Assembly: GCA_963778555.1 (NCBI GenBank)
Contig: CAVZUR010000005.1
Location: forward strand, 97,756-161,755
Direction: 5' to 3'
Source: Candidatus Moraniibacteriota bacterium
GTDB lineage: Bacteria; Patescibacteriota; Minisyncoccia; Moranbacterales; UBA1568
DNA: 64,000 nucleotides
Numbering within the stretch: the first letter of the stretch is position 1; every line of letters starts with the position of its first letter. Below are positions 1-35,093 of the stretch, one piece after another. Position numbers and translations under genes: made by a program. The notes beneath the pieces were generated by a model. The model saw only the letters and a program-made list of their open reading frames with translations, had not been told where the DNA came from and did not search any database.

Positions 1-1620
1 GTCACCAATGGTGCAGGGAGTATTACCATCGCTTCGACTCTGGGTGTGGCTGTCGACAGCGCTGAAATCACCGACAATGACCTGGACTTCATCGATTTCC
101 AGAATACGATGGATCTCGATGCCAACCTCACCCTGAATCAGACCACATTTACTTGGGACCCAGTCCTTCACCGGCACCACAACCAATGGCTACACCTACA
201 CCGCCGCCTCCCTCACCACGGGCTACGCTATGGACCTGAACGTCAACGGTGCCGTCCTCACCTCGGTGGCGCCATCAACATCGACGGCCGACTGGCGCGG
301 CAACTACCGGCTCCTTCAAGATTACGACCACGGGGCGGTGATGGCGGGGAGCTTCAAATCTCTGCCACCGCCACGATGCCTCTATATCAATCTCGGATGC
401 CGCGGCAATGACGACCGACTGGTGATCACCCCGCCGCCCTCGCACGGCTACCAGGACTGGTCAACGGCGACGCCACCTCACCCGGGTGCGCCATCGACAT
501 GACGGAACGACCGGAGTACTGCACTGCCGGATCCTCAAGATACGACGACTGGCGCCGCGAACCGGCACTGATCTCGGGACTGCCTCCGATATGCTCGCCC
601 CTCCAGAACGTCGCCTCTACCGTAGCTAGGCACGATGACGACGACGGGCGACTTGCTCACCCTTACTGCAAACTCGGCCACTAGTGCGACGGGACTTCTC
701 ACAATTGATGGCGGTAATGCGATGACAAGTGGTGGGGCCCTCAACATCACCGGCACTACCTATAATCATGGTGCTGATTTTGAAGAAGCCACTCTCGTGG
801 CTGTTGCTTATTCCGATACGACCTCTGGCGCTTTCAACACTACCACCTACGGCCTTGCGTCAACCCGACCATCAACATCACCACCGGTGCCGGCTCCAAA
901 GACAACAGTGCTATCTTCGTTCAACCATACCTCTGTACCGGTGCCACCCATTAATGTCTGTCCGGGACTCACGGATGCTCGGACATGGAACGACCAGGCC
1001 ATAAATGTTGGTTCTGGCTGGGATACGTATTCAACTCCTTTTCGCTCGATATCTCTGGTACTGGCGCCATCACCGGAGCGACGGGGATCACCTCGAGTGG
1101 CTCTATCACCTTTAGTGCCTTTACCAGTAATGGTGGTCCGCTCTACACCAACGGTTCGGGTGTCATCGCTCAAACCACTGCCGGGACAGCGACCCAAGTC
1201 CTCCATGGCGGTACTGCTCCAAGCTTCTCGGCCATTGTTGCTGCGGATATTACCGCTGACTCCCTCGACTTCACCGAATTCCAAGACACCCTCGATCTCG
1301 ATGCGGCCCTCACCCTGAACCAGACCACCAATACCTGGACCCAGTCCTTCACCGGCACCACCACCACCGGCTTCGCCTACACCGCCACTTCCCTCACCAC
1401 TGGCTCCGCCCTCAATGTCACTACCACCAATACCGCCACCGCCAACACCGCCCTCTCACCGGTTCAGTTCAATCTGACCAATGCTCAATCCACCCTCGCG
1501 AATACAGCTGGCATCAATGGAGTGCAAGTCAACTTCACCAACAACCCATCCATTGCGGGAAACACCGAAAATGCGGTTCGGATTCAGAACCAGGTCACGC
1601 GAACGTCACAGACAATGCGG
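1..1620 (+). pseudogene. Degenerate, multiply frameshifted 5' portion (or decayed paralogous copy) of the giant repetitive surface-protein gene; at least five frame switches between frames +1 and +2
   Basis: ORFs 46-411, 230-502, 635-1318 and 985-1818 alternate between two frames but all encode the same repeat modules seen in 1481-5629 (e.g. 'SLDF.EFQDTLDLDA.LTLNQTT.TW', 'MDLNVNGA.LTS', 'GAINIDG'). Alt-frame ORF 3082-3387 inside the clean gene gives the same junk peptide as 46-411, showing region 1-500 is a copy of ~3000-3500. Confidence 0.45.
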
Positions 1621-4600
1621 TCGCTCTCTCCTCCTCCTCGACAACGCCGATACTACCGCCACTGGCACCACCATCGTCACCGATGCCATCGCCATCACGA
1701 ACTCAGGCGGATCCAACTTCACCAACTTCCTCAATACCCCGACCCTCGACATCAGTGCGGCGGGGGCCATCACCGGAGCGACGGGGATCACAAGCTCGGG
1801 GAACATCACGTTCTCTAGCCTCACCGCTGGCTCTGTCCTTTTTGCGGGGACGTCGGGTATTCTCCAGCAAGACAATGCCAACTTCTTCTGGGATGATACG
1901 AACAATAGATTGGGGATCGGCGACACCACGCCCGATGGGCGGTTCGACTTCGACCTAGCCTCCACCTCGACGACGGCCGCGAATGAATACGGCGGTAACT
2001 ATACGTTCACGGATACTGGCGTCGTCACAACCGGTACGGACAATACTATCGGAGAGTCGGTCACAGTCACTCGGACCGGCGCGACCGGCGGGACGATCAG
2101 CACGTATGGAAGCCTCATCACGGCCACCGCCGATACGGCGGGCGCGGGCACGTCTGCCATTATCGGCCAGTATGTGACGGCCTCTGGCGCCGACACCACG
2201 TATGGGTTTTACGCCAATGTGACAGGTACGACCAGCGCGACTTCCTATGGCTATCTGTCGAACGTGACTGATGCCACGACAGGTGCCAATACCAATTATG
2301 CCGAGGCGCTTCAGATAACAGACACTGGTGTCGTGACGGCAGGTACGGATATCACGGTGGGCGACTATATCACCGTCACTCGAACCGGCGCGACCGGCGG
2401 GACGATCAATACCTACGGGGACGAAATCATCATAACGACGGACAATGCTGGTGCGGGCACGAGTACTGCCACTGGTGAGCTTATCGATACCGGTACGGCT
2501 GGAACGACGAATGCCGATACGACCTACGGCCTCTATGTCGCTACTGAAGCCAATGCCGGAACGACAGCGTTTGGCATCTATGTCGATGCGGGTATCCAGG
2601 CTGGAACCGAATACGCAGGCATCTTTATGAATGGCAATGTCGGTGTCGGGGATGCGACACCTCTCTCACTCTTCACTGTCGGCAATGGTGACCTCTTCCA
2701 GGTCAATTCGAGCGGTGCGATCGCCGCTGCCGCTGGTGTCACCTCTTCCGGTACCATCACCTTCTCTGGTCTTTCCACGGCCGGTATCGTCACCAACACT
2801 GCTGGTGGCGTCCTGGGGACGACCACGGCCGTCGCCGCGACCCTCGGCGGCACGGGCTTCTCCTCCTATGCGGTGGGTGATCTCCTCTACGCCAATACCA
2901 CGACAAGTCTCGCCAAACTCGCTGATGTGGCGGCGGGCAGCTGTCTCATCTCGGGGGGTGTCGGTGTAGCACCGACATGGGGAGTGTGTGGCGCGATCTC
3001 GGCTGACTCACTGGATTTTGTCGACTTCCAAGACACCCTCGACCTCGATGCCAATCTCGTCCTCAATCAAACCACCTTTACTTGGGATCAGTCCTTCACG
3101 GGGACGACGACCAATGGTTTCACGTATACGGCGGCGTCTCTGACCTCGGGCTACGCTATGGACCTGAACGTCAACGGTGCCGCCGTCCTCACCTCGGGCG
3201 GGGCTCTGAATATCGACGGCCCGACCGGTGCCGCGGCTCAGGCGGCGGGCTCACTTTTCAAGATCACGACCACGGGAGCAGTGACCGGGACGGACGGGAG
3301 CGGCAATTCATCGCAGATCTCGAGTGCGACGGTGACCGGTACTGTGTCGTCTATCTCGGATGCCGCGGTCATGACGACGACCGGTGACCTCCTCACCCTG
3401 ACCGCCAACGCAGCGACGACCACGACCGGCCTCCAGACGATCAATGCCACTGGTCTCACCACGGGCTATGCCATGGACCTGAACGTCAACGGTGCGGCGG
3501 TGCTCACTAGCGGTGGAGCCATCAATATCGACGGTCCGACGGGCGCGGCGGCTCAGGCCTCTGGTGCGCTCCTCAACATCACGACCACGGGAGCGGTCAC
3601 CGGTACGGCCGGTATCGGCAACTCACTCCAGGTGACGAGCGCTACCGTGACAGGCACGGTCGCCTCTATCACCGATGCGGCCACGATGACCACGACCGGC
3701 AATCTCCTCACTCTCACGGGCAATGCGGCGACGACGGCAACGGGCCTCCTCACGGTGAATGCCAACGGCCTCACGACGGGGAGTGCAGTGAACATCGCAT
3801 CGACCGCGACGGGACTCACGACCGGTGGCGCACTGCAGACCATCACACATTCGGGCTCGAATGCGGCCAACATCGGTTCGCTTCTCTCGCTCCAAAACAC
3901 CGGGACAGCCAGTGGCAACATCAGCCTCCTCATCCAGCACAATGCGACGGGAACAGGTAATCTGGCGTTCCGAGTCAACGATATCGCCGGCGATACGACA
4001 CCCGTGGTCATCGATGGCACGGGCCAGTTCGGTATCGGGACAGCTGCGCCGACGACATTGTTCGAGCTGTACGGCACCGGGTCGGCGGACGCGATCGCGA
4101 CGTTGACCGCGCCGGATGCAACCTTTGATCCGATCCTGAAGTATCGCACTGGCGCCACTCCGGCCGTCCAGTTCTCGCTCGGCATCGACAACACTGACTC
4201 GGACAAGTTCAAGATCTTCTCGGGTGATGGCGTCGGCTCGGGCGATGAATTCGTCATCGATAGTAACGGTGTCACGACAATCGCCAACCTGAACCTGGGT
4301 GCGACGACCTTCGACTCGGACGCCGGCGCGATCGTCTGGACGGATATGCCGGTGACGGCGACGACCGCCGCTGCGACCGTGATGAGCTATAGCGCGCAGA
4401 TTGATGCGACGAATCTCATGACGATGTATTCCGAGAGCAACGGTACGGGCGGCATTCAGAATACGCGTGTCGGTATCCTGACGACTGCCCCGCTTGATGT
4501 GCTGCATGTAGCTGGTGATGTGCGCGTCGGTACGGGCACCACGGGCTGTGTAAAAGACGCAGACGCGACGGTATTGACGGGAACCTGCTCTTCGGACGAA

Positions 4601-5629
4601 CGATTGAAGAAGAATATCATCCCGTTTGATAGTGTCCTGGATAATCTCGCCTCATTGACGCCCGTTACCTACAACTGGAGAAGTGATGAATTTCCGGATA
4701 AGCATTTCGGAGAAGCTGTGCAGCGCGGTCTGATTGCTCAGGATGTACAACGGGTATTTCCAGAGCTTGTGAAACAGGATGACGATGGCTATCTGCAGAT
4801 TGATTTTTCGAGCATTCAGTTCTATCTCTTGCAAGGTATCAAGGAAGAATACGCGTTGATTCAAGACCAATCAAACAGTATCGCCGCATTGTCTCTGGAG
4901 ACGACAGCTAGTATCACGACCTTGTCTGAACTCGAAGCAGCCGTTGAGGGACAGTTGATACTCGCGAGCGCGAACTTCACGACGCTGGCGGAAAAAGATG
5001 CCTTGATTGATACCAAACTGACAGAACATGATACGTACTTCGCCCGCGACCTGGCGCGGCTCGACGCAATTGATGCGCTGACGGCTCAGATGGCGCTCGA
5101 TCAGAACGCAGCCGCGGCCAACCTGGTGACGCTTCAGACTGAAATGACGGTTTTGACCGAGCAAGTCGGCACGCTCATGGAATTCTTCAACACGCTGGAC
5201 CTCGGCAATATGGTCGCGAAAGACGAGCTCGGCAATGTCGACCTGCTCGGCGGCACGCTCCGGGCCACTGCGCTCGCCACTGGCGGTATCACTATCGAAG
5301 TTGCCGATGAAGAGGCTCCGACCATTGGAACAGCGATGATCCTTCCAGTCGAGACGGACGCGGACGGCGATGGCAAAGATGATGAGACTGGTTCGGACGG
5401 CAAGAGTACGAGCGTCCTGACAAAAGCAATGATCCCGATGATCAACGGCTCACGCATCTTCACGAGCTTCAAGGGCAATCCGAACGCGTTTAGCTGGATC
5501 GAAAAGATCGTCACTGATGACGGGGAGTATGTCGGATTCAAGATCCGCGTCTCGGCGCCGGTCACGGAAAAGATCAAGGTCGACTGGTGGCTGATCGAGC
5601 AGAAGGATACGTTCTCGTCGAATCCATAA
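1481..5629 (+). CDS. Giant (>1380 aa) Thr/Gly/Ala-rich repetitive cell-surface protein (β-helix/fibre-like repeats) with peptidase S74-type intramolecular chaperone (auto-processing) domain and a coiled-coil-rich C-terminal region
   Basis: Uninterrupted 1382-aa ORF. Low-complexity T/G/A/S repeats. Tandem ~106-aa repeat (318 bp) at ~3153-3470 and 3471-3788. Motif block 'SSDERLKKNI...YNWRSDEF...GLIAQDVQRVFPELV...YLQIDFSSIQFYLLQGIKEEY' (~4590-4870) matches the tail-fibre/endosialidase C-terminal chaperone (Peptidase_S74) signature. Confidence 0.75.
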   Translation: MLNPPSRIQLASMECKSTSPTTHPLRETPKMRFGFRTRSRERHRQCGRSLLLLDNADTTATGTTIVTDAIAITNSGGSNFTNFLNTPTLDISAAGAITGATGITSSGNITFSSLTAGSVLFAGTSGILQQDNANFFWDDTNNRLGIGDTTPDGRFDFDLASTSTTAANEYGGNYTFTDTGVVTTGTDNTIGESVTVTRTGATGGTISTYGSLITATADTAGAGTSAIIGQYVTASGADTTYGFYANVTGTTSATSYGYLSNVTDATTGANTNYAEALQITDTGVVTAGTDITVGDYITVTRTGATGGTINTYGDEIIITTDNAGAGTSTATGELIDTGTAGTTNADTTYGLYVATEANAGTTAFGIYVDAGIQAGTEYAGIFMNGNVGVGDATPLSLFTVGNGDLFQVNSSGAIAAAAGVTSSGTITFSGLSTAGIVTNTAGGVLGTTTAVAATLGGTGFSSYAVGDLLYANTTTSLAKLADVAAGSCLISGGVGVAPTWGVCGAISADSLDFVDFQDTLDLDANLVLNQTTFTWDQSFTGTTTNGFTYTAASLTSGYAMDLNVNGAAVLTSGGALNIDGPTGAAAQAAGSLFKITTTGAVTGTDGSGNSSQISSATVTGTVSSISDAAVMTTTGDLLTLTANAATTTTGLQTINATGLTTGYAMDLNVNGAAVLTSGGAINIDGPTGAAAQASGALLNITTTGAVTGTAGIGNSLQVTSATVTGTVASITDAATMTTTGNLLTLTGNAATTATGLLTVNANGLTTGSAVNIASTATGLTTGGALQTITHSGSNAANIGSLLSLQNTGTASGNISLLIQHNATGTGNLAFRVNDIAGDTTPVVIDGTGQFGIGTAAPTTLFELYGTGSADAIATLTAPDATFDPILKYRTGATPAVQFSLGIDNTDSDKFKIFSGDGVGSGDEFVIDSNGVTTIANLNLGATTFDSDAGAIVWTDMPVTATTAAATVMSYSAQIDATNLMTMYSESNGTGGIQNTRVGILTTAPLDVLHVAGDVRVGTGTTGCVKDADATVLTGTCSSDERLKKNIIPFDSVLDNLASLTPVTYNWRSDEFPDKHFGEAVQRGLIAQDVQRVFPELVKQDDDGYLQIDFSSIQFYLLQGIKEEYALIQDQSNSIAALSLETTASITTLSELEAAVEGQLILASANFTTLAEKDALIDTKLTEHDTYFARDLARLDAIDALTAQMALDQNAAAANLVTLQTEMTVLTEQVGTLMEFFNTLDLGNMVAKDELGNVDLLGGTLRATALATGGITIEVADEEAPTIGTAMILPVETDADGDGKDDETGSDGKSTSVLTKAMIPMINGSRIFTSFKGNPNAFSWIEKIVTDDGEYVGFKIRVSAPVTEKIKVDWWLIEQKDTFSSNP
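4590..4870 (+). other. Peptidase S74 / intramolecular chaperone auto-processing domain within giant surface protein
   Basis: Conserved S74 chaperone-domain motifs (SDERLK, YNW, GLIAQDVQ, IDFSSIQFYLLQGIKE) read directly from the translation. Confidence 0.6.
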
Positions 5630-6015: not shown

Positions 6016-6576
6016 CTATTTCTGTTTAAAAAAATGACGCTTCAGGTGTTCTACATCATTGAGAGTGATCACTGTGGCCACTCGGACGTATGGTTCGGCG
6101 CCGTATAAGTGGACTAATTTCAAGATAGCCGACTCATACGGGTATGGGGAAACAAAGACGCTTTGTTGAAGTTTATAAAACTCCAATGTCTGGAGATGTT
6201 CACGCAGGACGTCTCGAAATGCTCGATTGGCTTCCGGAATATCGAAGAGAACCAGGCGCCACTTCTTATCCCACGCTTTCGGCTTTCTCAAATGGATAGA
6301 ATCACCGAAAAGGCTGAGTACTTGAGCTTCACGTTGACCCTCTTTGGTCAGCACTAAGCGGTACGAACCATCCGAAAGCTTCAATTCCCTAAAGAGTTTT
6401 TGGTGCGACAGCCGACGAAGAGAACGATTGAAACTTCGCTGGTCGATCTCCTTCCATCCGGCATGGGCGAGTCTGAGCGCTCTGAAATACTGAGCGGGGG
6501 ATTGAACTGCGCCGAGCGCCACCCCAGTCAAGAGCACAAGAAGAATTTTCTGCTGTACTGGACCGAATTTATACAT
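6016..6576 (-). CDS. PaaX-like winged-helix transcriptional regulator (Cas2-fold C-terminal domain)
   Basis: 186 aa. N-terminal wHTH-like region. C-terminal 'WDKKWRLVLFDIPEANRAFRDVLREHLQTLEFYKLQQSVFVSP' matches the PaaX-family core motif (W..V.FDIPE...R...R..L...GF..LQ.SV). Confidence 0.5.
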   Translation of the reverse strand: MYKFGPVQQKILLVLLTGVALGAVQSPAQYFRALRLAHAGWKEIDQRSFNRSLRRLSHQKLFRELKLSDGSYRLVLTKEGQREAQVLSLFGDSIHLRKPKAWDKKWRLVLFDIPEANRAFRDVLREHLQTLEFYKLQQSVFVSPYPYESAILKLVHLYGAEPYVRVATVITLNDVEHLKRHFFKQK

Positions 6577-7921: not shown

Positions 7922-8698
7922 CTATTTGTCAAGTAGCCCGAGATTATGTCGGATGACACTTCGAGTTTCCTCGAGACCGGCCGCGTAGAGGGCTGGATCA
8001 TTTCCCGGATACGCCCGGCCCCAATCAGTTGGGCTCATGTGTTCGCTTGCGAGGAGTGCGGTCTCTAGAGCCTTTCGAGCAGCTTCTTTTTCTCCAAGAT
8101 TGAGGAGCGCGGTACCATAAATGTTGTTCAGCCAGGGATTGCCGTGAGCCTGTCTGAGGCCGGCTGCTGCTGTGTCGCGAGTCTTTTCATACTCACCTAG
8201 CTTGAAGTAAATCCACGCCAAGTCGTTGTAGCCGGCCCAATTGAAGGAATCGCGTTTGATGAATTCGCTGAATCCCCAGATTGCGCTTTCATAGTCGCCT
8301 CTATATCCACTAATGAGCCCCTGCATATAGTAGGCCCGCTTGAATTCAGGATCTATACGGAGTACGGTGTCCATCTCAATCCGCGCCGATTCGAATCTTC
8401 CACTGATGAAATGGATGCGTCCGAGCTGGAAATGCGCTTCCAAAAAATCAGGATGTAATTCAATCGCTCTTGTGTAAGCAGACTCCGCTTTCTTAATGTC
8501 ATATGCTTCTCCATCCCCGAAATAGCTATCGCCGATTTTTAGAAACAGATCTGGATTGCTACGATTAACGAAAGTGGCAACCGTTTCCAACCCAAGACCG
8601 GGCCAGAAGGAATAGAGTTGCGGGATATGGAAACATGCGTAGGTACTGGAGAAAAGGGCAATAACAGTCCCAACCAACAGCACAGTGGAGGGCCTCAT
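7922..8698 (-). CDS. TPR-repeat protein with N-terminal membrane anchor
   Basis: Multiple TPR-like repeats (AYTRAIELHPDFLEAHFQLGRIHF..., RAYYMQGLISGYRGDYESAI..., YNDLAWIYFKLGEYEKT...). N-terminal hydrophobic helix. Confidence 0.7.
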   Translation of the reverse strand: MRPSTVLLVGTVIALFSSTYACFHIPQLYSFWPGLGLETVATFVNRSNPDLFLKIGDSYFGDGEAYDIKKAESAYTRAIELHPDFLEAHFQLGRIHFISGRFESARIEMDTVLRIDPEFKRAYYMQGLISGYRGDYESAIWGFSEFIKRDSFNWAGYNDLAWIYFKLGEYEKTRDTAAAGLRQAHGNPWLNNIYGTALLNLGEKEAARKALETALLASEHMSPTDWGRAYPGNDPALYAAGLEETRSVIRHNLGLLDK

Positions 8699-8807
8699 TT
8701 TGAGAGTCAGAGAAGTGATGGAATCCGTGATTTTATTCATGCATGATTCCAGTATAATATATCATGTTGAGATAGTATTTTTGCAGAAAAAACAGTTGTC
8801 GTTGTGT

Positions 8808-10229
8808 TCATGGGAACATATGCGGCAACGGATTCAGCTTCCACTCGGTGACACCTTTGGAAGCAGCGAATTCCTCCAAACGGTCGCTGTCGAAGGTGCC
8901 CTGGCACTCGAGGAGATAGAGGGGGAAAGCCTTCGGTACATAGACTTGGGCGATGTAGAACCCGAGCTTGGCTTGGATGGGATGCTTGGGGAAATAGGCA
9001 ATCGGGTAGTAGTCAGGGCCTCTTTTTCTCAGAACGGAGAGGCAGGCTTTCAGTTGGGTAGCATCATCGGTCGCTGAGGTGAGATCCTTTTGGCAGAGTT
9101 CCGCGTAGGAAACCTGCTTGCCGGAGAGGAACCACTGGAATTGCTGGATCTTTTCGGGACCGCGCCAGTAGAGTTGCCGTCCGATTTGACCGAGAACAGA
9201 AACGAATGGTTCGGATTGAGCATCCTTTTCCAGCTGCCGCTTATCACCCTCGTAATAAAACATTTCTGAGCTTATCACTATTTCTCTTAGAGAATGCCGT
9301 ATCGCTTGTTCGAATGTTGTCGCACTGGCGCCGCTCAGAACAATCTGAGGAGTCGCGCTCTTTGAGTTTAGGGCAGCAATAACGATAGACGGAATAGAGA
9401 GCGTTGTCACATCTACGATATGTAAAGACAGGCCGCATGATTCCAACGGGCGTATGATTTCCTGCATCTCCTCGGGGAGTGTTTCTACATCAATGATCCG
9501 CGGAGGAATCTGAGTGAGCCAGTGGACCAAGAATGCATCGCGCTCGATTGTTTCGAGGAGCCCACGCAGGAGAGCGCCATTTTTTGTGAAGTACCCGGCT
9601 GATCCGCTGGTCGTGGCGTTGACGAGAGGGGCTTCAGTGGAATAATTTTTGACGCACCATGAGGTCACTTGCCGCGGGATATACGTTTGTTCTTGCGTAA
9701 TGAGATTAATTCCACTCAGCCAATCCATCGGACGGGACGGGTCATGCTGGAGTTCCCGGTAATGCTCTCTTTGGATGTCCAAGAAGCGATGGTATTTCGG
9801 CGGGTAGAGTACTGGAAACTTTTTGAGCAGTTCGTTCGATGAAGCGATTAGTATGTCGGTATCCTTATTATACAAACCAGAAATGATGCGCTCAAGCATT
9901 TCGCCGATCGCTTTGGAAATAGCAGTCGCCCTATCTTTCGCAATCCCATGGCCGCTCACGCTCCGAAGATGTCCACGCACGACTACTTCTTTTTCCAGGG
10001 AATAAAAAAAGTATCCGGGAAAATGGAGACTTCTTTCTGCCATCGCATCGACGAGCCCTTTTTTTTTCAGATAAGTGTAAAGGGTTTCAGAGGCAGAGGT
10101 GACATCATCCGTGTGAGCAATATGCAGACTGTCCGCAAGCCAGGAATATCGGACGAATTGTTTTAATAAGCAAATCCGTATCCGATCGCCGATTCCCAGC
10201 GGTATTCGCCAGGGTCCGAACTTGTCCAT
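8808..10229 (-). CDS. YcaO-domain cyclodehydratase (TOMM/azoline-forming 'D' protein), paralogue 1
   Basis: 'TSGSAGYFTKNGALLRGLLETIERDAFLVHW' YcaO core. C-terminal Pro-rich 'NPLPHMFP' (PxPxP-type) motif typical of YcaO C-termini. ~474 aa from MDKFGPW. Confidence 0.8.
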   Translation of the reverse strand: MDKFGPWRIPLGIGDRIRICLLKQFVRYSWLADSLHIAHTDDVTSASETLYTYLKKKGLVDAMAERSLHFPGYFFYSLEKEVVVRGHLRSVSGHGIAKDRATAISKAIGEMLERIISGLYNKDTDILIASSNELLKKFPVLYPPKYHRFLDIQREHYRELQHDPSRPMDWLSGINLITQEQTYIPRQVTSWCVKNYSTEAPLVNATTSGSAGYFTKNGALLRGLLETIERDAFLVHWLTQIPPRIIDVETLPEEMQEIIRPLESCGLSLHIVDVTTLSIPSIVIAALNSKSATPQIVLSGASATTFEQAIRHSLREIVISSEMFYYEGDKRQLEKDAQSEPFVSVLGQIGRQLYWRGPEKIQQFQWFLSGKQVSYAELCQKDLTSATDDATQLKACLSVLRKRGPDYYPIAYFPKHPIQAKLGFYIAQVYVPKAFPLYLLECQGTFDSDRLEEFAASKGVTEWKLNPLPHMFP

Positions 10230-10349
10230 AATTGGTTTCTTTCGTTTGATTTCGTCTGGTCTAACCGAATGTACCAATATACAGAGTGATGTGGATAGTT
10301 TTACATGGAGATGTCATACAAGTACACCTACGTTTCTCCTGGTGTATTT

Positions 10350-10384
10350 TATCATGCATAAAAAAACAGGAGCCATGTGACAAC
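10350..10384 (-). terminator. Putative rho-independent terminator after secreted-protein gene
   Basis: Minus-strand reading ggagtcgtgttgtcacatggctcc followed by tgttttttt. Confidence 0.35.
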
Positions 10385-10425
10385 ACGACTCCTGGAATTT
10401 GCACCCTCAGCGTTTGAGGGCAGTC

Positions 10426-11241
10426 TCAATTACTTGCAGCGGCAGATTCCTTTTGGAAGACCGTGCTGTTTTGCCCATCACTCCCGCCATAACCGGCCCA
10501 CAGCTCATCGCCATGATTGGTGAAATAACATGTTCCACCCGCTCCCCCGCAGGGGAAAGCGAATTTCCCGTCCTTGATCTCTGCGGACTGGATCTTGCCG
10601 CTTGGTTTTTGCTGTGTGCCGTATATGAATTTGACCACACACTTCGCGTCGATTTCGCCGATCCAGAGCCACCGCTTGCCATAGCCCCAGTTTCCTGTCC
10701 AGCCACCGATGAAGGCGGCACAGGCTACTGGCACGTCGGCAGCCACCGGCTTGACCGAAAAGCCAGCTTCACGCTGAGGTTGCAAAGCCGCCAATTCTGT
10801 TTCGGCAAGTTTTCGGATGCTGACCGCCCGGGACTGTCCATTTGCGTCCGTGATAGTCCCGTTAAACGTGCCGTCTGGGTTTTGGGATGCTACGACCTTG
10901 CCCCCCAATCGGGTAATAAGCGATAACGTACGACCTTGAGCGGTCTCAATCATCTCTGCGCTAATCGGGAGCGGTTGCAGTCTCGGAAGACCGAGAGCAG
11001 CGTTGAGCGCGACTTTTCCAGTGTCGCCTTGTTTCGTTCCGCCAGAAAGCTGCAACGTCAGTGTTCGGTCGCTGCCGACGACCGTAATGAGCCATGAAGA
11101 GTTCAGATCGAATGGCAGCTGACTTGTCAGTGCCGCCAGAGTGATACTGTCGCTAGAGGCCTTCATCTGGGCGAAGCCAATGCTTGGCAGGCTGGAAAAA
11201 ACAGAGAAAAAAACCGAAAAGAGAATCGAAAGTGCCCGCAT
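10426..11241 (-). CDS. Secreted hypothetical protein (signal peptide) with Gly/Cys-rich C-terminal tail, embedded in the TOMM-like locus
   Basis: N-terminal 'MRALSILFSVFFSVFSSLPSIGFAQ' signal peptide. C-terminal '...FPCGGAGGTCYFTNHGDELWAGYGGSDGQ'. Confidence 0.55.
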   Translation of the reverse strand: MRALSILFSVFFSVFSSLPSIGFAQMKASSDSITLAALTSQLPFDLNSSWLITVVGSDRTLTLQLSGGTKQGDTGKVALNAALGLPRLQPLPISAEMIETAQGRTLSLITRLGGKVVASQNPDGTFNGTITDANGQSRAVSIRKLAETELAALQPQREAGFSVKPVAADVPVACAAFIGGWTGNWGYGKRWLWIGEIDAKCVVKFIYGTQQKPSGKIQSAEIKDGKFAFPCGGAGGTCYFTNHGDELWAGYGGSDGQNSTVFQKESAAASN

Positions 11242-11397
11242 GATAAACTACTCCTTGGTTGATTGGTAAGGGACAGCACCGCCACTATACCATATTTGCT
11301 ATATAAGTCAAATAGTAGTATTCCGTTTACGCATTGCTTTAAGTGCCGCTTTTTTTCTGCATTCTTCATTTACGACATATAATGGAAAGACCTCCGT

Positions 11398-12141
11398 ATG
11401 CATACATTTCTCTACAATTTTTTTCATCACGAGACCAATGATCGGACGGAAAAGGGCCTGGTGAGTATTCCGGCAGACAAGGGGCGCTGGCCGGAGTCAT
11501 GGAAAACGATAACGTGCAAACGGTATTCTCTGTTTCCGGAGGTTGAGCTTCCTGAAACGAGCGGGTCTTTGTTTGAGCAGCTCTTGCGAGAACGCAGATC
11601 GAGCGAAGGGCATATCGTGGGGAATATCCTCACTCTGCCCGTACTTGCCTATATCCTGCAGTGTGGGTATGGCCTGCAGGGCGGGAGCGAAGGAGATCAG
11701 AGGAAAGCGAACCGAACCGTTCCTTCCGGCGGGGGACGATATCCGCTCGAAGTGTATGTTTTTCTCTTCAAGCCGATTGGCACTTGCGTTTCGGGAATCT
11801 ATCATTACAGTGTGAAGCATCATTCCTTGGAACCAGTTGCGCTCATGCCATTCACGCTTGAAGATATTGGTTCTTTCGCACCGGAGCAGGCGTGGCTCCA
11901 GGATACGAACGGGATGATTTGCATCACGAGTGTGTTTCAGAGAACGGTTGAAAAATACGGCAGCCGCGGGTATCGCTACATCTTGCTGGAGGCTGGGCAT
12001 GCTGCTCAGAATATGCTGCTCGCCGGAACCGAAAAGGGCGTGAACATCATCCCGATTGGCGGCGTAGAGGCTGATAAAATAGAAAAAAAACTTGGCCTGA
12101 GCGGGGAAGAAGAAGGGGTCGTGTATACGCTCTTTTTATAA
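11398..12141 (+). CDS. SagB-type (McbC-like) FMN-dependent dehydrogenase of the nitroreductase superfamily (TOMM 'B' protein)
   Basis: 'GGRYPLEVYVFLFKP...SGIYHYSVKHHSLEPV...RGYRYILLEAGHAAQNMLLAGTEKGVNIIPIGG' are canonical SagB/nitroreductase motifs. Confidence 0.8.
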   Translation: MHTFLYNFFHHETNDRTEKGLVSIPADKGRWPESWKTITCKRYSLFPEVELPETSGSLFEQLLRERRSSEGHIVGNILTLPVLAYILQCGYGLQGGSEGDQRKANRTVPSGGGRYPLEVYVFLFKPIGTCVSGIYHYSVKHHSLEPVALMPFTLEDIGSFAPEQAWLQDTNGMICITSVFQRTVEKYGSRGYRYILLEAGHAAQNMLLAGTEKGVNIIPIGGVEADKIEKKLGLSGEEEGVVYTLFL

Positions 12142-12233
12142 TAAACCCTAGTATGCGGAGCGACTCCTCTTCAAAATTTTTCCATTGCTCGGGATACCTC
12201 TCCCTTAGGGAGTATGTGGAGGATATCGAGTCG

Positions 12234-13680
12234 ATGAGGCAGCATGGCCCGTGGCGGCTCCCGCTCGGCATCGGCGACCGGGTGCAGATTTTCTTTTTCT
12301 CCCTGATTCTGAAATACTCCTGGTTTTCTGATGCGTTGAGCATACGGTATCCCTATACGTGGAGCCCAGCGTATTCGGTGCTCATCGCCTATCTGAAAAG
12401 GTGTGGCGTAGTCGATGTGGTCCGGGAGCAGAATGCGAATCGCAGCGGATATTCCTTCTTCTCCCTTCAAAGGGGCATTTCCATAAATGAAAATATTCGG
12501 ACCATCGGCGGTCTGGGAGTCGACCAAGAGGTCTCGACGGCGTTTTCCAAAGCGATCGGCGAAATGCTTGAGCGCATCATTTCTGGTTTGTATAATAAGG
12601 ATACCGACATACTAATCGCTTCATCGAACGAACTGCTCAAAAAGTTTCCAGTACTCTACCCGCCGAAATACCATCGCTTCTTGGACATCCAAAGAGAGCA
12701 TTACCGGGAACTCCAGCATGACCCGTCCCGTCCGATGGATTGGCTGAGTGGAATTAATCTCATTACGCAAGAACAAACGTATATCCCGCGGCATATTGTT
12801 TCGTGGTTTGGGTTTGCCGAAGCGCGCGTGTTCAAAGACATTCTCCTGCATCCGACATCCAATGGCTGTGCCGGGTACTTTACGAAGACGGGTGCTGTTT
12901 TGCGAGGGCTGATCGAAGCAGTGCAACGGGACGCTTTTCTCGTCCATTGGCTCACGCAGATCGCCCCTGATCGCATCATCGAGGACACTCTGTCGCTAGA
13001 AATTCAGAAACAAGTCGGGGAATTCAAGGCGCGTGGAATCACCCTGCATATTCTCGATGTCACAGCTCTTTCTATCCCGTCCGTATCCATTGTGGCAATC
13101 AATGCTGAATCGGAAACTCCGCAGATTATTTTGAGCGGCGCAGAGCGGCGACATTTGAGCGGGCGGTGCAGGACGCACTCCGTGAAATGGTGCTGATGTC
13201 AGCGACTATGTTCTACCAAGGAGAAGCTAATAATAGAAAGAAAGAGCCTATGTTAGCAGAGCCGCAGCCATTCGTTTCTGATCTCAATGAGAAAACCAGG
13301 CAACTCTACTGGCGCGGTCCCGAAAAGATCCAGCAATTCCAGTGGTTCCTCTCCGGCAAGCAGGTTTCCTACGCGGAACTCTGCCAAAAGGATCTCACCT
13401 CAGCGACCGATGATGCTACCCAACTGAAAGCCTGCCTCTCCGTTCTGAGAAAAAGAGGCCCTGACTACTACCCGATTGCCTATTTCCCCAAGCATCCCAT
13501 CCAAGCCAAGCTCGGGTTCTACATCGCCCAAGTCTATGTACCGAAGGCTTTCCCCTCTATCTCCTCGAGTGCCAGGGCACCTTCGACAGCGACCGTTTGG
13601 AGGAATTCGCTGCTTCCAAAGGTGTCACCGAGTGGAAGCTGAATCCGTTGCCGCATATGTTTTCTTGATGAGCGATACAG
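12234..13680 (+). CDS. YcaO-domain cyclodehydratase paralogue 2, mosaic relative to paralogue 1, interrupted by two frameshifts (~13145 and C-homopolymer at ~13555-13560)
   Basis: ORFs 12153-13196 and 13166-13642 together align over full length to YcaO 1. Blocks 'KAIGEM...QTYIPR' and 'RQLYWRGPEKIQQ...VPKAFP' are identical in amino acid sequence (near-identical DNA, inverted), while the middle and N-terminal blocks are diverged. Copy 2 has CCCC where copy 1 has CCCCC at the shift site. Confidence 0.7.
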
Positions 13681-13777
13681 GTTGTGGAAAGAGGAGACAT
13701 CGTGTATCGTTTATAGTGTACGCGGTACCGGAGAGTCACGAGACAAATATAAATCATTTCAGGCCGTGTTAGCGAGT

Positions 13778-14470
13778 ATGTTTCAGAAAGTCAGGCGAGT
13801 TGCGAGCAGAAAACTCCTGTTTCTTGTTGGCGTATCTTTGGCCGGTATCCTTGGCATCCTGGGCAGTTATACGCGGACGAACTATTCGAAAAGCGGTTCG
13901 CTGGTTGTCCCAAAGGCGCAGGCGGATACCCCTCCCACTTGTGCTTCGTGCGGTTGCGCCTATACTGAGGACCAATGCGTTACATACTGGTCCTGTTTTC
14001 CGGCCGACACGCCTATCAGCACACCAGCCGGTAAGCGAGTCATACAGGAGCTGGCGGTCGGAGACAGCGTGCTTGGTTTCGACATTGAAACCGGCCGGAC
14101 CGGAGAATACCCGGTGACCAGAACCTTCAAACACGGCCGAAACGATGCGAATACCGTGTATTCTCCGCTGATTCAGATTACGCATGCAAAAGGATCGTTC
14201 CTCGCGACGGATAATCATTGGATCTATCGGCGCAATGGCCGGGTCGGGGAATACGCCAATTTTGACCGTGTCGGAACGCTTCAAGTCGGTGACATGCTGA
14301 CGACAGAAAGCGGCGAAGAGGTGGCGGTGACAGCGATCGAACCGGGGCCCGAGTATGATTTTGTGTACAATCTCGAGGTGGCGGAGGCCCATACGTATTT
14401 CGCTAGCGGTATCCGGGTACACAATAGCGGCAGTGGACCTGGTGGCTGTTGTGGCTCTTCAGGAAAATAA
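13778..14470 (+). CDS. Small secreted Cys/Gly/Ser-rich protein whose Cys-rich core is interrupted by a complete mini-intein-like Hint domain (13994-14425); candidate RiPP/TOMM precursor
   Basis: Signal/TM 'MFQKVRRVASRKLLFLVGVSLAGILGILG'. N-extein '...PPTCASCGCAYTEDQCVTYWS'. Hint blocks: A 'CFPADTPI', B 'GSFLATDNHWIY' (TxxH), F 'VYNLEVAEAHTYFA', G 'SGIRVHN' then +1 Ser. C-extein 'SGSGPGGCCGSSGK' then stop. Confidence 0.7.
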   Translation: MFQKVRRVASRKLLFLVGVSLAGILGILGSYTRTNYSKSGSLVVPKAQADTPPTCASCGCAYTEDQCVTYWSCFPADTPISTPAGKRVIQELAVGDSVLGFDIETGRTGEYPVTRTFKHGRNDANTVYSPLIQITHAKGSFLATDNHWIYRRNGRVGEYANFDRVGTLQVGDMLTTESGEEVAVTAIEPGPEYDFVYNLEVAEAHTYFASGIRVHNSGSGPGGCCGSSGK

Positions 14471-14534
14471 AGCTGCTTTTTCGGATGGGAGTAATTTGCA
14501 GCCAAAATACTTTTAATCACCACGAGTTGTTATT

Positions 14535-15761
14535 ATGGAAACTGAAGCCGATATCCGAACTCCCGCTGGAGACTCGAGGGAGAAAAATAAAAAGATTCGG
14601 TTGACCGGAAAAGTCGTTCTTGTTGTCATGCTAATAGTCGCCCTTGCATATGGGGCGTTGTATTTGTTCGAGAAGAATACCTGGTATAAATTGAGATCCG
14701 ATCGGACAATTTATACACCGGCCAATGATAACGCGTATACCGAAAGTCTCCTAAATAATAATCCGAAGCTATTGCAGGATTCGTTTGTGGCCGATGTCGA
14801 AAGCGGAGTGAATGATAAGTTTACCAAGTCAGATGCCTATTTCCTGACCCACCGGTACTTTGATAACGGCGGAAATGTCTACGAAATCTATGATTATGTA
14901 AACAGCCATCCGAGTCTGGAATTTCTCAAGGAAGCCGAAGAAATTTACCCGGCTATTTTTGATCAGCTACGGACCAAAACGCTTTCCCCGGTGCCATATT
15001 CCAGGCAATCTCTGTATGCAGTTCTGGCATATCTGGAAGTACTTGATAAGCACGGGTATGCGGATATCGCCGCTCTGGGCACGCTCGCTAATCAATATGC
15101 GAAGACGGCCTATTTCATAAAAAAGAGATCAGAAAACGATCCTGCTGGTGGCTTGGATCCGGCTCCAATGATACGGCAAGCGACGGAAAAAGCGATTGTG
15201 TTCGAATTGAAAACCAGAGATGTGATGCTGGGAATGTCTAAGGGTAATCAGTCTCTCGTGAAAAGTATAGCGAGTCGACCGAAATCGCTTGATTCGAGAT
15301 CGCCTCTGCGGAAGAATTTTTCGAAGGAAATAACAGCCCAATCATTGATTACCGGACTTAATCAGTATGCCGCCTGTCTTCGATATTTGGAGGTCACGGG
15401 AATTGCCATCTCGATCATCGATTCACCCGTGCAAGCGAATGATGTTTTTTCCTTCAGCATGTTATTTGCAGAAACCTATGTTCCAGAAATGGAGGTATTT
15501 ACGTCGCTCCTCAATGCCTCGACGCTCGCTTTGGTGAGTCCGGAGAGTGCTGATGCTATCAAGACTGCTCTCCAACCGATTCTGGAGTACGATCTTACTC
15601 AAGAATTGGGGATAATTCGCCTTCTCTTTGAGGCGAAGGACGACAAATTCGGCGGCTGGGATATATATGGAAAAAGGAATGCCATAATGCTGGCCAATAT
15701 CGTTCCTGAGTTCAAGGCATGGCTTATTGCGGGAGGGTGGGAAGAACCTGATTTTCAGTAG
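14535..15761 (+). CDS. Hypothetical membrane-anchored protein (single N-terminal TM)
   Basis: 408-aa ORF. 'VVLVVMLIVALAYGALYLF' TM helix. No recognisable catalytic motifs. Confidence 0.5.
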   Translation: METEADIRTPAGDSREKNKKIRLTGKVVLVVMLIVALAYGALYLFEKNTWYKLRSDRTIYTPANDNAYTESLLNNNPKLLQDSFVADVESGVNDKFTKSDAYFLTHRYFDNGGNVYEIYDYVNSHPSLEFLKEAEEIYPAIFDQLRTKTLSPVPYSRQSLYAVLAYLEVLDKHGYADIAALGTLANQYAKTAYFIKKRSENDPAGGLDPAPMIRQATEKAIVFELKTRDVMLGMSKGNQSLVKSIASRPKSLDSRSPLRKNFSKEITAQSLITGLNQYAACLRYLEVTGIAISIIDSPVQANDVFSFSMLFAETYVPEMEVFTSLLNASTLALVSPESADAIKTALQPILEYDLTQELGIIRLLFEAKDDKFGGWDIYGKRNAIMLANIVPEFKAWLIAGGWEEPDFQ

Positions 15762-19454: not shown

Positions 19455-20888
19455 TTGGCTGAAATGCCATCTCAGAATACATCAATTCCCTCAGATACGA
19501 TAACCGCACGCATCCCTATGGAGATGAAAGGAGTGATAAAGGATAATCAAAATCCTCGGGCCTCGATAGGCATTCTTTGCTCCTTCCTTCCGTTTTTTTT
19601 CGTCTTCGAAAAGGTCTATAAGAATTTGGAAAATGTTGAATTTATTCTTGATTTTACGACTCTCCCCATTGGAATTCCCTATCCAGAGTGGTATAAGGAA
19701 CGAATGCGAAAGTATTTTACAAATCAAAATGTTTATTTTCGCGATCTTGAAGCAAGCAATTTTACCCCGGCAGAGTTTTTTTCGAAATACCACACATTGG
19801 TAAGTGGATCTTTTGATGGTCTGATGGCGCATAAGTGCAATCAAACCAAAAAAAAAGTGCGAGTGATGTATGGCCTCGCCAAAGACCTCAATAGTTTTTC
19901 TCTCACAAATACGCATTTCGACCTGGTAGCATGTCCCTCGGAGTATGTCGCTAAGAGAATGCAAGATCTATGCGGTGTTCGTGTCGCGGTGACCGGTGAT
20001 CCCAAATATGATCGCTACATTCTTGATGCCTCGCCAACACCGCCAAGTATAGAGGAAATTCTAAAAGCGAGTCAGGGCAAGAAGATCGTCTTATTTGCTC
20101 CGACATGGGGGAATCTTTCATCTGAGAAAAGAATCCTCCCCGTTCTTGTGGAGCTATCTCAAAAATATACTGTTTTCTACAAGCCGCATCACATGACAAT
20201 GATATCCCAGTCAGAGGTCATTAAAGACTTCGACAGGATTTCGGATATTCACATAATCTGGGACGATGTGAGTTTCATGGATATGTTGAAGAAAGTCGAT
20301 GTGGTAATCACGGACAATAGCAGCGCTATATTTGACACCATCATTGTTAAAAAACCTCTAGTCCTTATTGATATCACGGTTGAGGGAAAATTTCCTTATG
20401 CAAAATCCCCATTCTATTCTTTTCGGGGGGGGAAATTCGGTGGTGTTTCTACATCACTTGAGAGTCTCGAGCAGGTAGTGAAGGTAGAGGGCCGGGAAAT
20501 TGCTCCAGTAGTACGGCTTTCAAAAAAATTGATTGAGGATACGTTGCCACCACTTGCGACTGCTATCGAAGCGGCAATTGAATCAGCCGGGGGGTTAATT
20601 TATTTGGAACGGCAAAAGCAGGTATTGAATGATTATTCGGGAGTGATTGACGGAAAAGCGGGGGAGCGCATTGCAAGTGAAATCCAATATATGGTCGATA
20701 ATTACGTAGAAGATTCCAAAAGCGCGCTTGAACCATATGTGTATGACTTTCAGCATAAAGTACGCGAGGAGGATCGGGACGTATTTGATTGGGAAAACCA
20801 GGATAGGTTGGATGAACAAAAGATATTGAACATACGGCGGTTACCAATGGTTGAAAAGGTTAAAAAAATCATAGAATTATTCTATTAG
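19455..20888 (+). CDS. Second TagF-family CDP-alcohol phosphotransferase
   Basis: 'FYKPHHMT...VDVVITDNSSAIFDTIIVKKPLVLID' TagF signature. Confidence 0.65.
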   Translation: MAEMPSQNTSIPSDTITARIPMEMKGVIKDNQNPRASIGILCSFLPFFFVFEKVYKNLENVEFILDFTTLPIGIPYPEWYKERMRKYFTNQNVYFRDLEASNFTPAEFFSKYHTLVSGSFDGLMAHKCNQTKKKVRVMYGLAKDLNSFSLTNTHFDLVACPSEYVAKRMQDLCGVRVAVTGDPKYDRYILDASPTPPSIEEILKASQGKKIVLFAPTWGNLSSEKRILPVLVELSQKYTVFYKPHHMTMISQSEVIKDFDRISDIHIIWDDVSFMDMLKKVDVVITDNSSAIFDTIIVKKPLVLIDITVEGKFPYAKSPFYSFRGGKFGGVSTSLESLEQVVKVEGREIAPVVRLSKKLIEDTLPPLATAIEAAIESAGGLIYLERQKQVLNDYSGVIDGKAGERIASEIQYMVDNYVEDSKSALEPYVYDFQHKVREEDRDVFDWENQDRLDEQKILNIRRLPMVEKVKKIIELFY

Positions 20889-20891
20889 CAT

Positions 20892-21851
20892 ATGTCGAAG
20901 GGCCTGTCTGTTTCTGTCGTTATCCCTACTCTGAACGGCCTTCTTAAATCAGATATTGTTTTGTACAGTCTGGAAAGACAATCCTATCTCGTGAATATCG
21001 TCGAGGTGATCATCGTTGATGACGCATCGAACGATCCTGAAAAAAAAGTACGGTATGAACTGATACAGGATCGGTTCTCTCGTTTGAATGTCGTGGTGTT
21101 GTTTCATGAAAGGAATACCGGCCCCGCTGGTGCTCGCAATACCGGGGTAAAAAAAGCGAAGGGGGATGTGATTTTTTTTACCGACGATGATTGCGAATTG
21201 CCGTCGAACTGCATCGAAGAACATCTCAAGATATATGCTGCCCACCCCTCCGTCAGTAGTGTCGGCGGATGGTACAAACCGTATGATAACGATATTCGGG
21301 ACAGTCTCTATCAAACATACATGATGATTCATGTTCTGAATTATTCTTCCCTGTTCCATCAGTCGATCTCTTGTTCTCCCGAAGGTTTCGCATTTCCCGC
21401 GGTGAATACCGCCAATCTCTCAGTCCGACGGCACGTATTCAGTCAGGTTCAATTTGATGAAGATTTTACAACCCCCAGTTATGAGGACAGATTTTTCTCC
21501 GAAAGCATCCGGAGGGCTGGATATACCATGTACTACTTCCCCCTCTTCATTTTTCACCGAAAAAAATTGAATCTGAGAGGATTTATTCGACTTGCTATGA
21601 ATAAAGGGATGGGCCGGTATGTTTACTATGGGAAGCACGGAGTACTAGATTCTCAAGCGTTCGATGCCGTTCTGAGAAAGCGCGATTTGATCAGGCGATT
21701 ATCCTTGACTAACTCGCAGATCCGGAAAAGAAAATGGAGACTTTTTGTGTTAGTTTACGCATGGTATTTCCTGGAAAGTTCCCACATTATGAAAGGATAT
21801 TACGAGCGTGCATATGTCAGAAGAATGGGATATTATCCAGGTTCTCTGTAG
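20892..21851 (+). CDS. Family 2 glycosyltransferase (GT2), tandem copy 1
   Basis: 'VSVVIPTLNG...VEVIIVDDASNDP...VIFFTDDDCELP' GT-A fold DxD motifs. Confidence 0.8.
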   Translation: MSKGLSVSVVIPTLNGLLKSDIVLYSLERQSYLVNIVEVIIVDDASNDPEKKVRYELIQDRFSRLNVVVLFHERNTGPAGARNTGVKKAKGDVIFFTDDDCELPSNCIEEHLKIYAAHPSVSSVGGWYKPYDNDIRDSLYQTYMMIHVLNYSSLFHQSISCSPEGFAFPAVNTANLSVRRHVFSQVQFDEDFTTPSYEDRFFSESIRRAGYTMYYFPLFIFHRKKLNLRGFIRLAMNKGMGRYVYYGKHGVLDSQAFDAVLRKRDLIRRLSLTNSQIRKRKWRLFVLVYAWYFLESSHIMKGYYERAYVRRMGYYPGSL

Positions 21852-21906
21852 GTATTGCGATGAGAGCAGCGGAGATAAAAAAATCATAGAATTATTCTAT
21901 TAGCAT

Positions 21907-22875
21907 ATGTCGAAGGGCCTGTCTGTTTCTGTCGTTATCCCTACTCTGAACGGCCTTCTTAAATCAGATATTGTTTTGTACAGTCTGGAAAGACAATCCT
22001 ATCTCGTGAATATCGTCGAGGTGATCATCGTTGATGACGCATCGAACGATCCTGAAAAAAAAGTACGGTATGAACTGATACAGGATCGGTTCTCTCGTTT
22101 GAATGTCGTGGTGTTGTTTCATGAAAGGAATACCGGCCCCGCTGGTGCTCGCAATACCGGGGTAAAAAAAGCGAAGGGGGATGTGATTTTTTTTACCGAC
22201 GATGATTGCGAATTGCCGTCGAACTGCATCGAAGAACATCTCAAGATATATGCTGCCCACCCCTCCGTCAGTAGTGTCGGCGGATGGTACAAACCGTATG
22301 ATAACGATATTCGGGACAGTCTCTATCAAACATACATGATGATTCATGATAGGAGCGCTTACGGAAATCTTCTTTACTACCCGTCCGCCTCTCGTCTCCC
22401 CGAGGAGTCTAAGTTCCCGGCGATAAATACCGCCAATCTCTCAGTCCGACGGCACGTATTCAGTCAGGTTCAATTTGATGAAGGCTTCATAGCACCGGGG
22501 TATGAAGATCTATTTTTCTCCGAAAGCATCCGGAGGGCTGGATATACCATGTACTACTTCCCCCTCTTCATTTTTCACCGAAAAAAATTGAATCTGAGAG
22601 GATTTATTCGACTTGCTATGAATAGAGGGATGGGCCGGTATGTTTACTATGGGAAGCACGGAGTACTAGATTCTCAAGCGTTCGATGCCGTTCTGAGAAA
22701 GCGCGATTTGATCAGGCGATTATCCTTGACTAACTCGCAGATCCGGAAAAGAAAATGGAGACTTTTTGTGTTAGTTTACGCATGGTATTTCCTGGGTAGC
22801 TCCAGCGTTATGAAAGGATATTACGAGCGTGCATATGTCAGAAGAATGGGATATTATCCAAAATTTATTTCGTAA
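21907..22875 (+). CDS. Family 2 glycosyltransferase (GT2), tandem copy 2 (mosaic: identical blocks separated by short copy-specific segments)
   Basis: First ~148 aa identical to copy 1, including 30 bp of upstream sequence. Divergent segment ('DRSAYGNLLYYPSASRLPEESKFPAINT' vs 'VLNYSSLFHQSISCSPEGFAFPAVNT'), then near-identical again. Confidence 0.8.
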   Translation: MSKGLSVSVVIPTLNGLLKSDIVLYSLERQSYLVNIVEVIIVDDASNDPEKKVRYELIQDRFSRLNVVVLFHERNTGPAGARNTGVKKAKGDVIFFTDDDCELPSNCIEEHLKIYAAHPSVSSVGGWYKPYDNDIRDSLYQTYMMIHDRSAYGNLLYYPSASRLPEESKFPAINTANLSVRRHVFSQVQFDEGFIAPGYEDLFFSESIRRAGYTMYYFPLFIFHRKKLNLRGFIRLAMNRGMGRYVYYGKHGVLDSQAFDAVLRKRDLIRRLSLTNSQIRKRKWRLFVLVYAWYFLGSSSVMKGYYERAYVRRMGYYPKFIS

Positions 22876-33788: not shown

Positions 33789-33794
33789 TTCGTC

Positions 33795-35053: not shown

Positions 35054-35093
35054 ACCTAACAGTGGGAGGCCAGTATCAAAGGCAGGATCAGTT

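Follow-up and report, generated by a model that had tools for sequence, protein, structure and literature searches.

Probable gene conversion between inverted, deeply diverged YcaO paralogues of a Candidatus Moraniibacteriota bacterium

We describe two YcaO genes, copy 1 (Y1) and copy 2 (Y2), in a 64,000-nucleotide (nt) stretch of DNA from a Candidatus Moraniibacteriota bacterium (assembly GCA_963778555.1, contig CAVZUR010000005.1, positions 97,756 to 161,755; hereafter the window). They are head-to-head inverted paralogues transcribed away from each other, as a preliminary description of the locus had proposed and as open reading frame (ORF) listing, repeat finding and matches to the YcaO superfamily (PF02624) bear out. 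Within them, stretches of identical DNA alternate with stretches that are deeply diverged. Recurrent homologous recombination (gene conversion, with occasional inversion) between old inverted paralogues in a thiazole/oxazole-modified microcin (TOMM)-like cluster is the probable explanation.

The two genes were compared by gapped global nucleotide alignment, as ungapped codons and as proteins, in four consecutive blocks termed N (N-terminal), A, C (central) and B (Table 1). Block A is an exact repeat of 250 nt, while block B consists of exact runs of 253 nt (9178->8926 = 13299->13551) and 110 nt (8924->8815 = 13552->13661), so that the copies have 613 identical nt in common. Outside these blocks, nucleotide identity in the gapped alignment is 58% for the N-terminal part and 59% for the central part (53% and 57% over ungapped codons), and the gene flanks cannot be aligned. 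At the protein level, Y1 and Y2 are 37% identical in block N, 100% in A, 48% in C and 99% in B. The interleaving of identical and diverged blocks, and the strong divergence of the N-terminal and central parts, had been noted before and hold at the nucleotide level. What had been taken for a continuous inverted repeat of about 1.2 kb is instead two short perfect inverted repeats inside diverged homologous sequence. The second block was correctly described as identical, but not as about 95 amino acids (aa) long: DNA identity reaches to 7 nt before the stop codon, about 121 codons. It had appeared to end at '...KAFP' because the second of two deletions in Y2 shifts the frame.

Synonymous divergence (dS) between the copies is 2.4 in block N and saturated, hence not computable, in block C, whereas block A has a dS of 0 and block B one of 0.026. 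Third-position identities are 40% (N), 32% (C), 100% (A) and 99% (B). At a per-site match rate of 0.59, an exact run of 250 nt has a probability of about 1e-57. Because dS is near zero in the blocks and saturated outside them, selection at the protein level cannot explain the identity of the blocks.

Relatives comprised 20 genome loci and 29 metagenome loci, 16 of the latter being mapped with the window proteins and agreeing with the genome loci. The nearest proteins all come from metagenome-assembled genomes (MAGs) of Patescibacteria (candidate phyla radiation, CPR) and from metagenomes. Two YcaO copies were found at only two of these loci, L013 (YcaO on the minus strand, SagB on the minus, p271 on the plus, YcaO on the plus) and L022 (= L025; Y1-type and p271 on the minus strand, four other genes, then SagB and Y2-type on the plus). 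Trees and identities were computed per block against Y1-type references (L021, L013a, L022a) and Y2-type references (L013b, L022b, L024). In block N, Y1 has an identity of 0.59 to L021 and 0.45-0.47 to L013a and L022a, against 0.35-0.37 to the Y2-type proteins, and Y2 has 0.35-0.36 to the Y1-type and 0.52-0.54 to the Y2-type. In block C, the values for Y1 are 0.68 (L021), 0.55 (L013a) and 0.49 (Y2-type), and those for Y2 are 0.51, 0.52 and 0.67-0.71; this comparison leaves out L022a, which covers the first 56 aa of the block, including a converted tract of its own, and is 0.71 identical to both window copies. Accordingly, Y1 groups with L021, L013a and L022a in blocks N and C and Y2 with L013b, L022b and L024, bootstrap values for the opposite grouping being 0.04 or less. 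In block A, the identity of both window copies to the Y2-type references is 0.65-0.71, against 0.57 to L013a and 0.55 to L022a, and both group with the Y2-type at a bootstrap of 1.0. In block B, both are 0.74-0.77 identical to the Y2-type, against 0.60-0.63 to single-copy Y1-like proteins, and both fall in the copy-2 lineage. A phylogeny built block by block, as had been recommended, thus has N and C following orthology while A and B of both genes follow the copy-2 lineage.

These tracts are near-identical within one genome although orthologues differ by 24-45% over the same blocks A and B, their flanks follow orthology, and synonymous divergence collapses inside them. The earlier proposal of recent gene conversion or recombination is upheld on these grounds: block A has no synonymous difference and block B next to none, the rest is saturated, and the blocks break orthology. 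With blocks A and B of Y2 type in both genes, Y2 was probably the donor and Y1 is a chimera, N1-A2-C1-B2.

We propose that general homologous recombination of the host would recently have copied two segments of Y2 into Y1, non-reciprocally, to give this chimera. The tract ends lie at the family-invariant motifs SKAxGEMxER, TYIPR and RQLYWRG, in which even diverged copies would be similar enough in nucleotide sequence for recombination to begin and to be resolved. The same conversion would recur at other positions in related genomes. An occasional crossover would invert the segment of about 4.1 kb between the block-B repeats, swapping which YcaO body lies upstream of the TPR gene or of the genes for the Hint protein and p408. 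RecA-type enzymology and the timing of conversion are what we infer from this pattern.

Some observations weigh against this account. Two perfect tracts around a diverged stretch of 505 nt need two events or one discontinuous event, and such events are deduced here rather than observed. Both the path through the repeats and the exact 100% identity rest on assembled sequence and not on reads. The donor call is weaker for block B, because L013a and L022a are truncated and no Y1-type reference has a native, unconverted C-terminus. Finally, the apparent donor, Y2, is the copy that appears broken.

Tracts of this kind recur among relatives, at other positions. The two copies of L022 are about 60% identical, but from 'CACCCCACCTCCAACGG...' onward identity is 100% over a tract of at least 118 nt, inside which the contig ends. 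This tract falls in what is the diverged C block of the window, and block A of L022 is only 54% identical between copies (protein). Block A is likewise diverged in L013 (61% identical), where a C-block stretch of about 88% identity, read from the alignment by eye, may be an older conversion tract. The L013 contig, of 4029 nt, stops at codon 350 at both ends, the position at which block B starts in the window; this is what a collapsed inverted repeat would cause.

Inversion finds indirect support in L021 and L023, in line with the earlier suggestion that the repeats could mediate it. The Y1-type gene of L021 also has a Y2-like block A (bootstrap 0.88), and its 3' flank is orthologous to the Y2 flank of the window. 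The order in both L021 and L023 is p271, Y1-type body, HINT and p408, with the body joined to the last two through block B. Compared with the window order, a single inversion whose breakpoint lies in block B appears to have taken place in one of the two lineages. A protein search with repaired Y2 found no reciprocal inversion product (a Y2-type body followed by TPR) and no closer Y2-type relatives. Other contigs are truncated at the edges of block A: L054 starts at aa 105, and L056 and L057, from two assemblers, at aa 183. In total, 4 of 11 contig truncations fall no more than 4 aa from a block boundary, of which there are three (about 6% expected per truncation), a coincidence that was spotted post hoc at boundaries that are also the most conserved motifs of the family. 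It suggests that other populations have repeats or common segments with the same edges.

The window contains other paralogues with patchy similarity. A tandem pair of family-2 glycosyltransferase genes (20892-21851 and 21907-22875; region 20861-22875) is a second mosaic pair, with an exact block of 473 nt, a diverged patch of about 150 nt, and after it two more exact runs, 113 and 170 nt long. At least six T4SS-pilin (PF18895) paralogues lie on the plus strand at 33417-38241, and two pairs among them are 92-96% identical over 300 nt (33386-33685/34026-34325 and 35958-36257/37799-38098). In the last member (36415-38241), the reading frame changes several times within a long Cys/Pro-rich insert. 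From the mosaic glycosyltransferase pair and the pilin similarity, patchy homogenisation of neighbouring paralogues appears to be general in this genome, which points to general homologous recombination.

In the inverted tufA/tufB pair of enterobacteria and in rRNA operons, conversion proceeds through general homologous recombination, and reciprocal resolution produces inversions. The window pair resembles such cases of concerted evolution in duplicated bacterial genes in that its members are intrachromosomal paralogues with segments more alike within the genome than between orthologues. It differs from tuf-type systems in that the paralogues are deeply diverged (saturated dS), lie 2-4 kb apart and have been converted in short patches. 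Moreover, converted patches of this type differ between relatives, and one member of the pair may be a pseudogene. That paralogues evolve in concert in prokaryotes is established (PMC6053082), and concerted evolution and gene conversion in duplicated genes are described as a general phenomenon in PMC6053082 and PMC8022953.

The layout also calls to mind programmed or frequent reversible inversion of the shufflon kind, as in phase-variable hsdS loci or the flip-flop of plastid inverted repeats. Blocks A and B would then be recombination sites kept identical by exchange, and one population would hold alternative YcaO chimeras and operon wirings. Inverted identical blocks do alternate with variable blocks here, as in hsdS systems and shufflons, and recombination at either block would make chimeras. 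L021 and the window carry opposite junctions across block B, and breaks in independent contigs coincide with these three boundaries (aa 105 in L054, aa 183 in L056/L057 and, twice, aa 350 in L013). In known systems of this kind, a dedicated recombinase is usual, as is the presence of both orientations in one culture. A Pfam scan of 54 ORFs across the window, in contrast, found no tyrosine or serine recombinase, and the opposite junctions occur only between species about 25% diverged (window and L021), not within a population. There are no fixed sites either, since tract positions vary between genomes and block A is diverged in L013 and L022. The boundary coincidence, besides being post hoc, concerns the most conserved motifs, where homologous exchange or graph branching tends to fall, and a similar mosaic exists in other paralogue pairs of the window. 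We therefore regard a shufflon as unlikely.

A related possibility is that the YcaO of this clade is a recombination-modular enzyme. An intact gene and an inverted second copy, silent in some cases, would recurrently exchange sequence at three fixed junctions (aa ~105, ~186 and ~351), flip-flop would take place across the C-terminal block, and populations would contain mixed chimeras, all without a dedicated recombinase. We consider this improbable. If true, the flip-flop would re-pair enzyme bodies with either TPR or the precursor-Hint-p408 group and would constitute a shufflon of maturases for ribosomally synthesised and post-translationally modified peptides (RiPPs) that operates without a dedicated recombinase.

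An assembly or polishing artefact could take the form of a repeat node used twice, of copies homogenised by cross-mapped short reads during polishing, or of a wrong path through the repeats. The window does come from a MAG contig (228,612 bp), frame breaks in at least four of its genes suggest an imperfect consensus, and reads of 150 nt are too short to resolve repeats of 250-363 nt, related short-read contigs indeed breaking there. The N1-C1 and N2-C2 linkages nevertheless match independent assemblies of L021, L013, L022 and L024, and the single C-run difference in block B speaks for a separate consensus in each copy. Polishing would also need copies already about 90% or more identical beside saturated flanks, which in itself implies conversion, and L022, an independent assembly, has the same phenomenon. 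An artefact is thus very unlikely. Purifying selection alone, keeping catalytic blocks identical while the rest drifts, would suit the conserved SKAxGEMxER motif of block A and the standing of block B as the best conserved in the family (0.6-0.9 to homologues), but it is refuted by a dS of 0 and is next to impossible, as protein selection cannot erase synonymous differences, identity at third codon positions reaches 100% and 99% within the blocks but 32-40% beyond them, and orthologues differ by 24-45% in the same blocks.

Table 1. Coordinates of the YcaO copies, their identical blocks and other features of the window (positions are those of the 64,000-nt stretch)
Feature	Positions	Strand	Remarks
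Y1	8808..10229	minus	YcaO copy 1; intact ORF, 473 aa; PF02624 E=4e-38; identical to database protein P0001
Y2	12153..13668	plus	YcaO copy 2; two ORFs, 12153..13196 and 13166..13642
Block A, Y1	9670..9919	minus	250-nt exact repeat; aa ~104-186, including SKAIGEMLER and TYIPR; dS=0
Block A, Y2	12544..12793	plus	250-nt exact run (Y1 9919->9670 = Y2 12544->12793); putative donor lineage
Block B, Y1	8815..9178	minus	364 nt; codes for the C-terminal third (aa 351-472)
Block B, Y2	13299..13661	plus	363 nt; single difference from Y1 is one C fewer
Frameshift 1, Y2	13140..13142	plus	C absent at 13141: GGCGCCAG (Y1), GGCGCAG (Y2); diverged part
Frameshift 2, Y2	13552..13555	plus	C4 run, C5 in Y1 (8921-8925); only difference within block B
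Segment bounded by block-B inverted repeats	9179..13298		Both YcaO bodies, p271 and SagB-like gene; equalled by the L013 contig
TPR protein	7922..8740	minus	Downstream neighbour of Y1; conserved cluster member
Terminator-like hairpin	10367..10394	minus	Between p271 and Y1; 12-bp stem and T7 tail
p271	10426..11241	minus	271 aa; hydrophobic N-terminus; without family match; conserved partner upstream of Y1-type genes
SagB-family peptide dehydrogenase	11398..12141	plus	Nitroreductase fold; PF00881; TIGR03605 108.1 bits (cut-off 78.4)
Putative precursor with Hint/intein-like domain	13682..14470	plus	Cys/Gly/Ser-rich; PF07591; TIGR01443; downstream neighbour of Y2
p408	14535..15761	plus	Conserved 408-aa cluster protein; without family match
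Giant repeat-rich surface protein	1-5629		Endosialidase-chaperone (Peptidase_S74) domain; several frame switches in first ~1.5 kb
GH1 glycosidase	54200-56174		Single-copy; one frame switch (~55.07 kb) at an A-run that immediately precedes the ITENG motif

The inverted repeats had been said to flank a dehydrogenase gene. That gene is present, but it is one of two intervening genes, the SagB-like gene and p271. Y2 directly follows the SagB-like gene, and the ATG at 12153, 11 nt after the SagB-like stop codon, is probably its start, rather than position 12234 as previously given, because it yields the N-terminal extension of the family. Y1 is without this extension, which is typically about 27 aa. 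The position after the SagB-like gene is conserved (synteny in L001-L012), so that Y2 occupies the canonical position and Y1 is an extra copy behind p271 and before the TPR gene. Y1-like and Y2-like genes are each found elsewhere as the sole canonical copy (P0004 and P0042 represent canonical single-copy loci), and the extra copy would therefore be an old duplicate or a lateral acquisition. Going by these comparisons, Y1 and Y2 appear to be old paralogues (or xenologues) of the SagD-like YcaO. A scan for promoters and terminators gave no more sites overall than expected from shuffled sequence; the hairpin between p271 and Y1 was the strongest, and its location means that Y1 may be transcribed separately or only by read-through.

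The earlier description overlooked two 1-nt deletions that split the ORF of Y2. Restoring one C at the first frameshift gives 'SGARAATFE', which matches orthologues, and with both C bases restored Y2 encodes 505 aa with a family-consensus N-terminal extension and a PHMFS C-terminus. The housekeeping genes of the window (valyl-tRNA synthetase, NusA, trigger factor, ClpP, TsaD and RecG) are unbroken. Frame switches do occur in three other genes, namely those for the giant surface protein and the GH1 glycosidase and the Cys-rich T4SS-pilin-like gene, a pattern that fits leftover homopolymer errors of long-read assembly. On the other hand, frameshift alleles of these YcaO genes may also be real: L023, from the same population as L021 (99.8% nt identity) although a separate Joint Genome Institute assembly and sample, has a 2-nt deletion in a CTCTCT repeat of block A (at ~310, against ~832 in L021) that breaks its Y1-type YcaO. 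L023 was also considered as a recombinant of L021 and rejected, being the same sequence with this deletion. Pseudogene and sequencing error are roughly evenly balanced as explanations of the Y2 deletions.

Y1 matches the YcaO superfamily PF02624 with 131.9 bits (cut-off 25.7), and the first Y2 ORF with 95.7 bits. Against the SagD-like family TIGR03604, Y1 scores 150.7 bits (full-length alignment, 96-473), below the cut-off of 219.25; it is a relative of the curated family rather than a member. The AlphaFold model of Y1 has a pLDDT of 86.7 and a pTM of 0.88, with lower confidence for residues ~1-50. Its Foldseek matches include LynD (E=8e-21), MusD (2e-20) and MJ1094 (8e-19), with TMq 0.6-0.7, and it also matches the YcaO domains of TruD and McbD over almost its full length. 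As the model superimposes almost entirely on a single YcaO domain, blocks N, A, C and B would be segments of one fold and not modules. A separate leader-recognition domain in block N was considered and rejected, since the model is one YcaO domain with ~470-490 columns aligned to LynD and MusD.

The earlier suggestion of diversifying recognition regions next to homogenised catalytic or partner-interaction blocks accordingly finds no backing. In the model, the blocks lie in one fold. The diverged C block contains conserved motifs (GYFTK... and ERDAFLVHW, the latter family-invariant), and relatives have their tracts elsewhere, L022 in the C block, with block A diverged in L022 and L013. The similar mosaic in the tandem glycosyltransferase pair also suggests that the conversion process is generic and speaks against such a functional reading.

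The YcaO pair is part of a cluster conserved in Patescibacteria (7922-15761 in the window; L001-L017 and L026-L039), made up of a divergently oriented TPR gene, sometimes p271, a SagB-like gene, a SagD-like YcaO gene, a short ORF or Hint protein, and one to three p408 genes. Order and orientation vary, L014-L016 having p408, p271, SagB, YcaO and TPR on one strand, but the SagB-type FMN dehydrogenase adjoins YcaO in all relatives. Two genes from the cluster, a PaaX-like protein with a Cas2-like middle domain is encoded on the minus strand at 6016-6576 (PF20803, E=4e-22).

In relatives, the product of the gene after YcaO is 70-110 aa long; its N-terminus is hydrophobic and conserved and its tail is rich in Gly/Ser/Asp/Cys, as in a precursor of the microcin B17 type. 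In the window, a Hint domain (PF07591; intein C-terminal motif; 'C|FPADTPIS...VHN|SGSG') is inserted between 'CASCGCAYTEDQCVTYWS' and 'SGSGPGGCCGSSGK', and the predicted spliced product is colinear with intein-less homologues. A Hint/intein-like domain is also found in L008, L009, L012, L021, L024, L027 and L061, and intein-less forms in L004, L005, L007, L010, L014, L016, L017, L028, L029, L036, L038 and L039. The window gene may thus represent an intein within a RiPP precursor. A literature search found no paper combining YcaO and 'Hint domain', and, among the titles listed for YcaO and 'candidate phyla radiation', apparently none concerns this cluster.

The TOMM, or linear azol(in)e peptide, synthetases of microcin B17 (McbBCD) and streptolysin S (SagBCD) share with the window a SagB-family dehydrogenase and a YcaO of cyclodehydratase fold, and the product of the adjacent window gene, a putative precursor, has a Gly/Ser/Cys-rich tail. 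The window differs in its two YcaO paralogues, in a YcaO below the SagD cut-off, in the Hint domain of the putative precursor and in the absence of a recognised E1-like partner. Among p271, p408, TPR and the YcaO N-terminus, none had a Pfam or NCBIfam match to an E1-like/Ocin-ThiF protein or RiPP recognition element (SagC/McbB); p408 or p271 may still be remote homologues. Both YcaO enzymes would form azol(in)es on the Cys-rich putative precursor encoded next to them. A pair of YcaO paralogues is also a feature of RiPP clusters such as that of bottromycin, where the two presumably act on different sites or substrates. To our knowledge, no sequence exchange is known between the YcaO paralogues of bottromycin-type clusters; those of the window, by contrast, have 613 identical nt in common.

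Gene conversion between the two YcaO copies is a known kind of event, ordinary conversion between neighbouring paralogues, and involves no new mechanism. What the locus offers, in a CPR bacterium that is uncultivated, is a clean and well-delimited instance of patchy conversion between inverted paralogues that have diverged deeply, with a donor that can be inferred and with recurrence in relatives. Phylogenies of these YcaO genes need to be built block by block, short-read assemblies of the cluster break at converted blocks, and the annotation of Y2 should carry a frameshift flag. The conserved cluster itself, above all the Hint/intein-like domain in its putative precursor, is probably of more interest than the mosaic.

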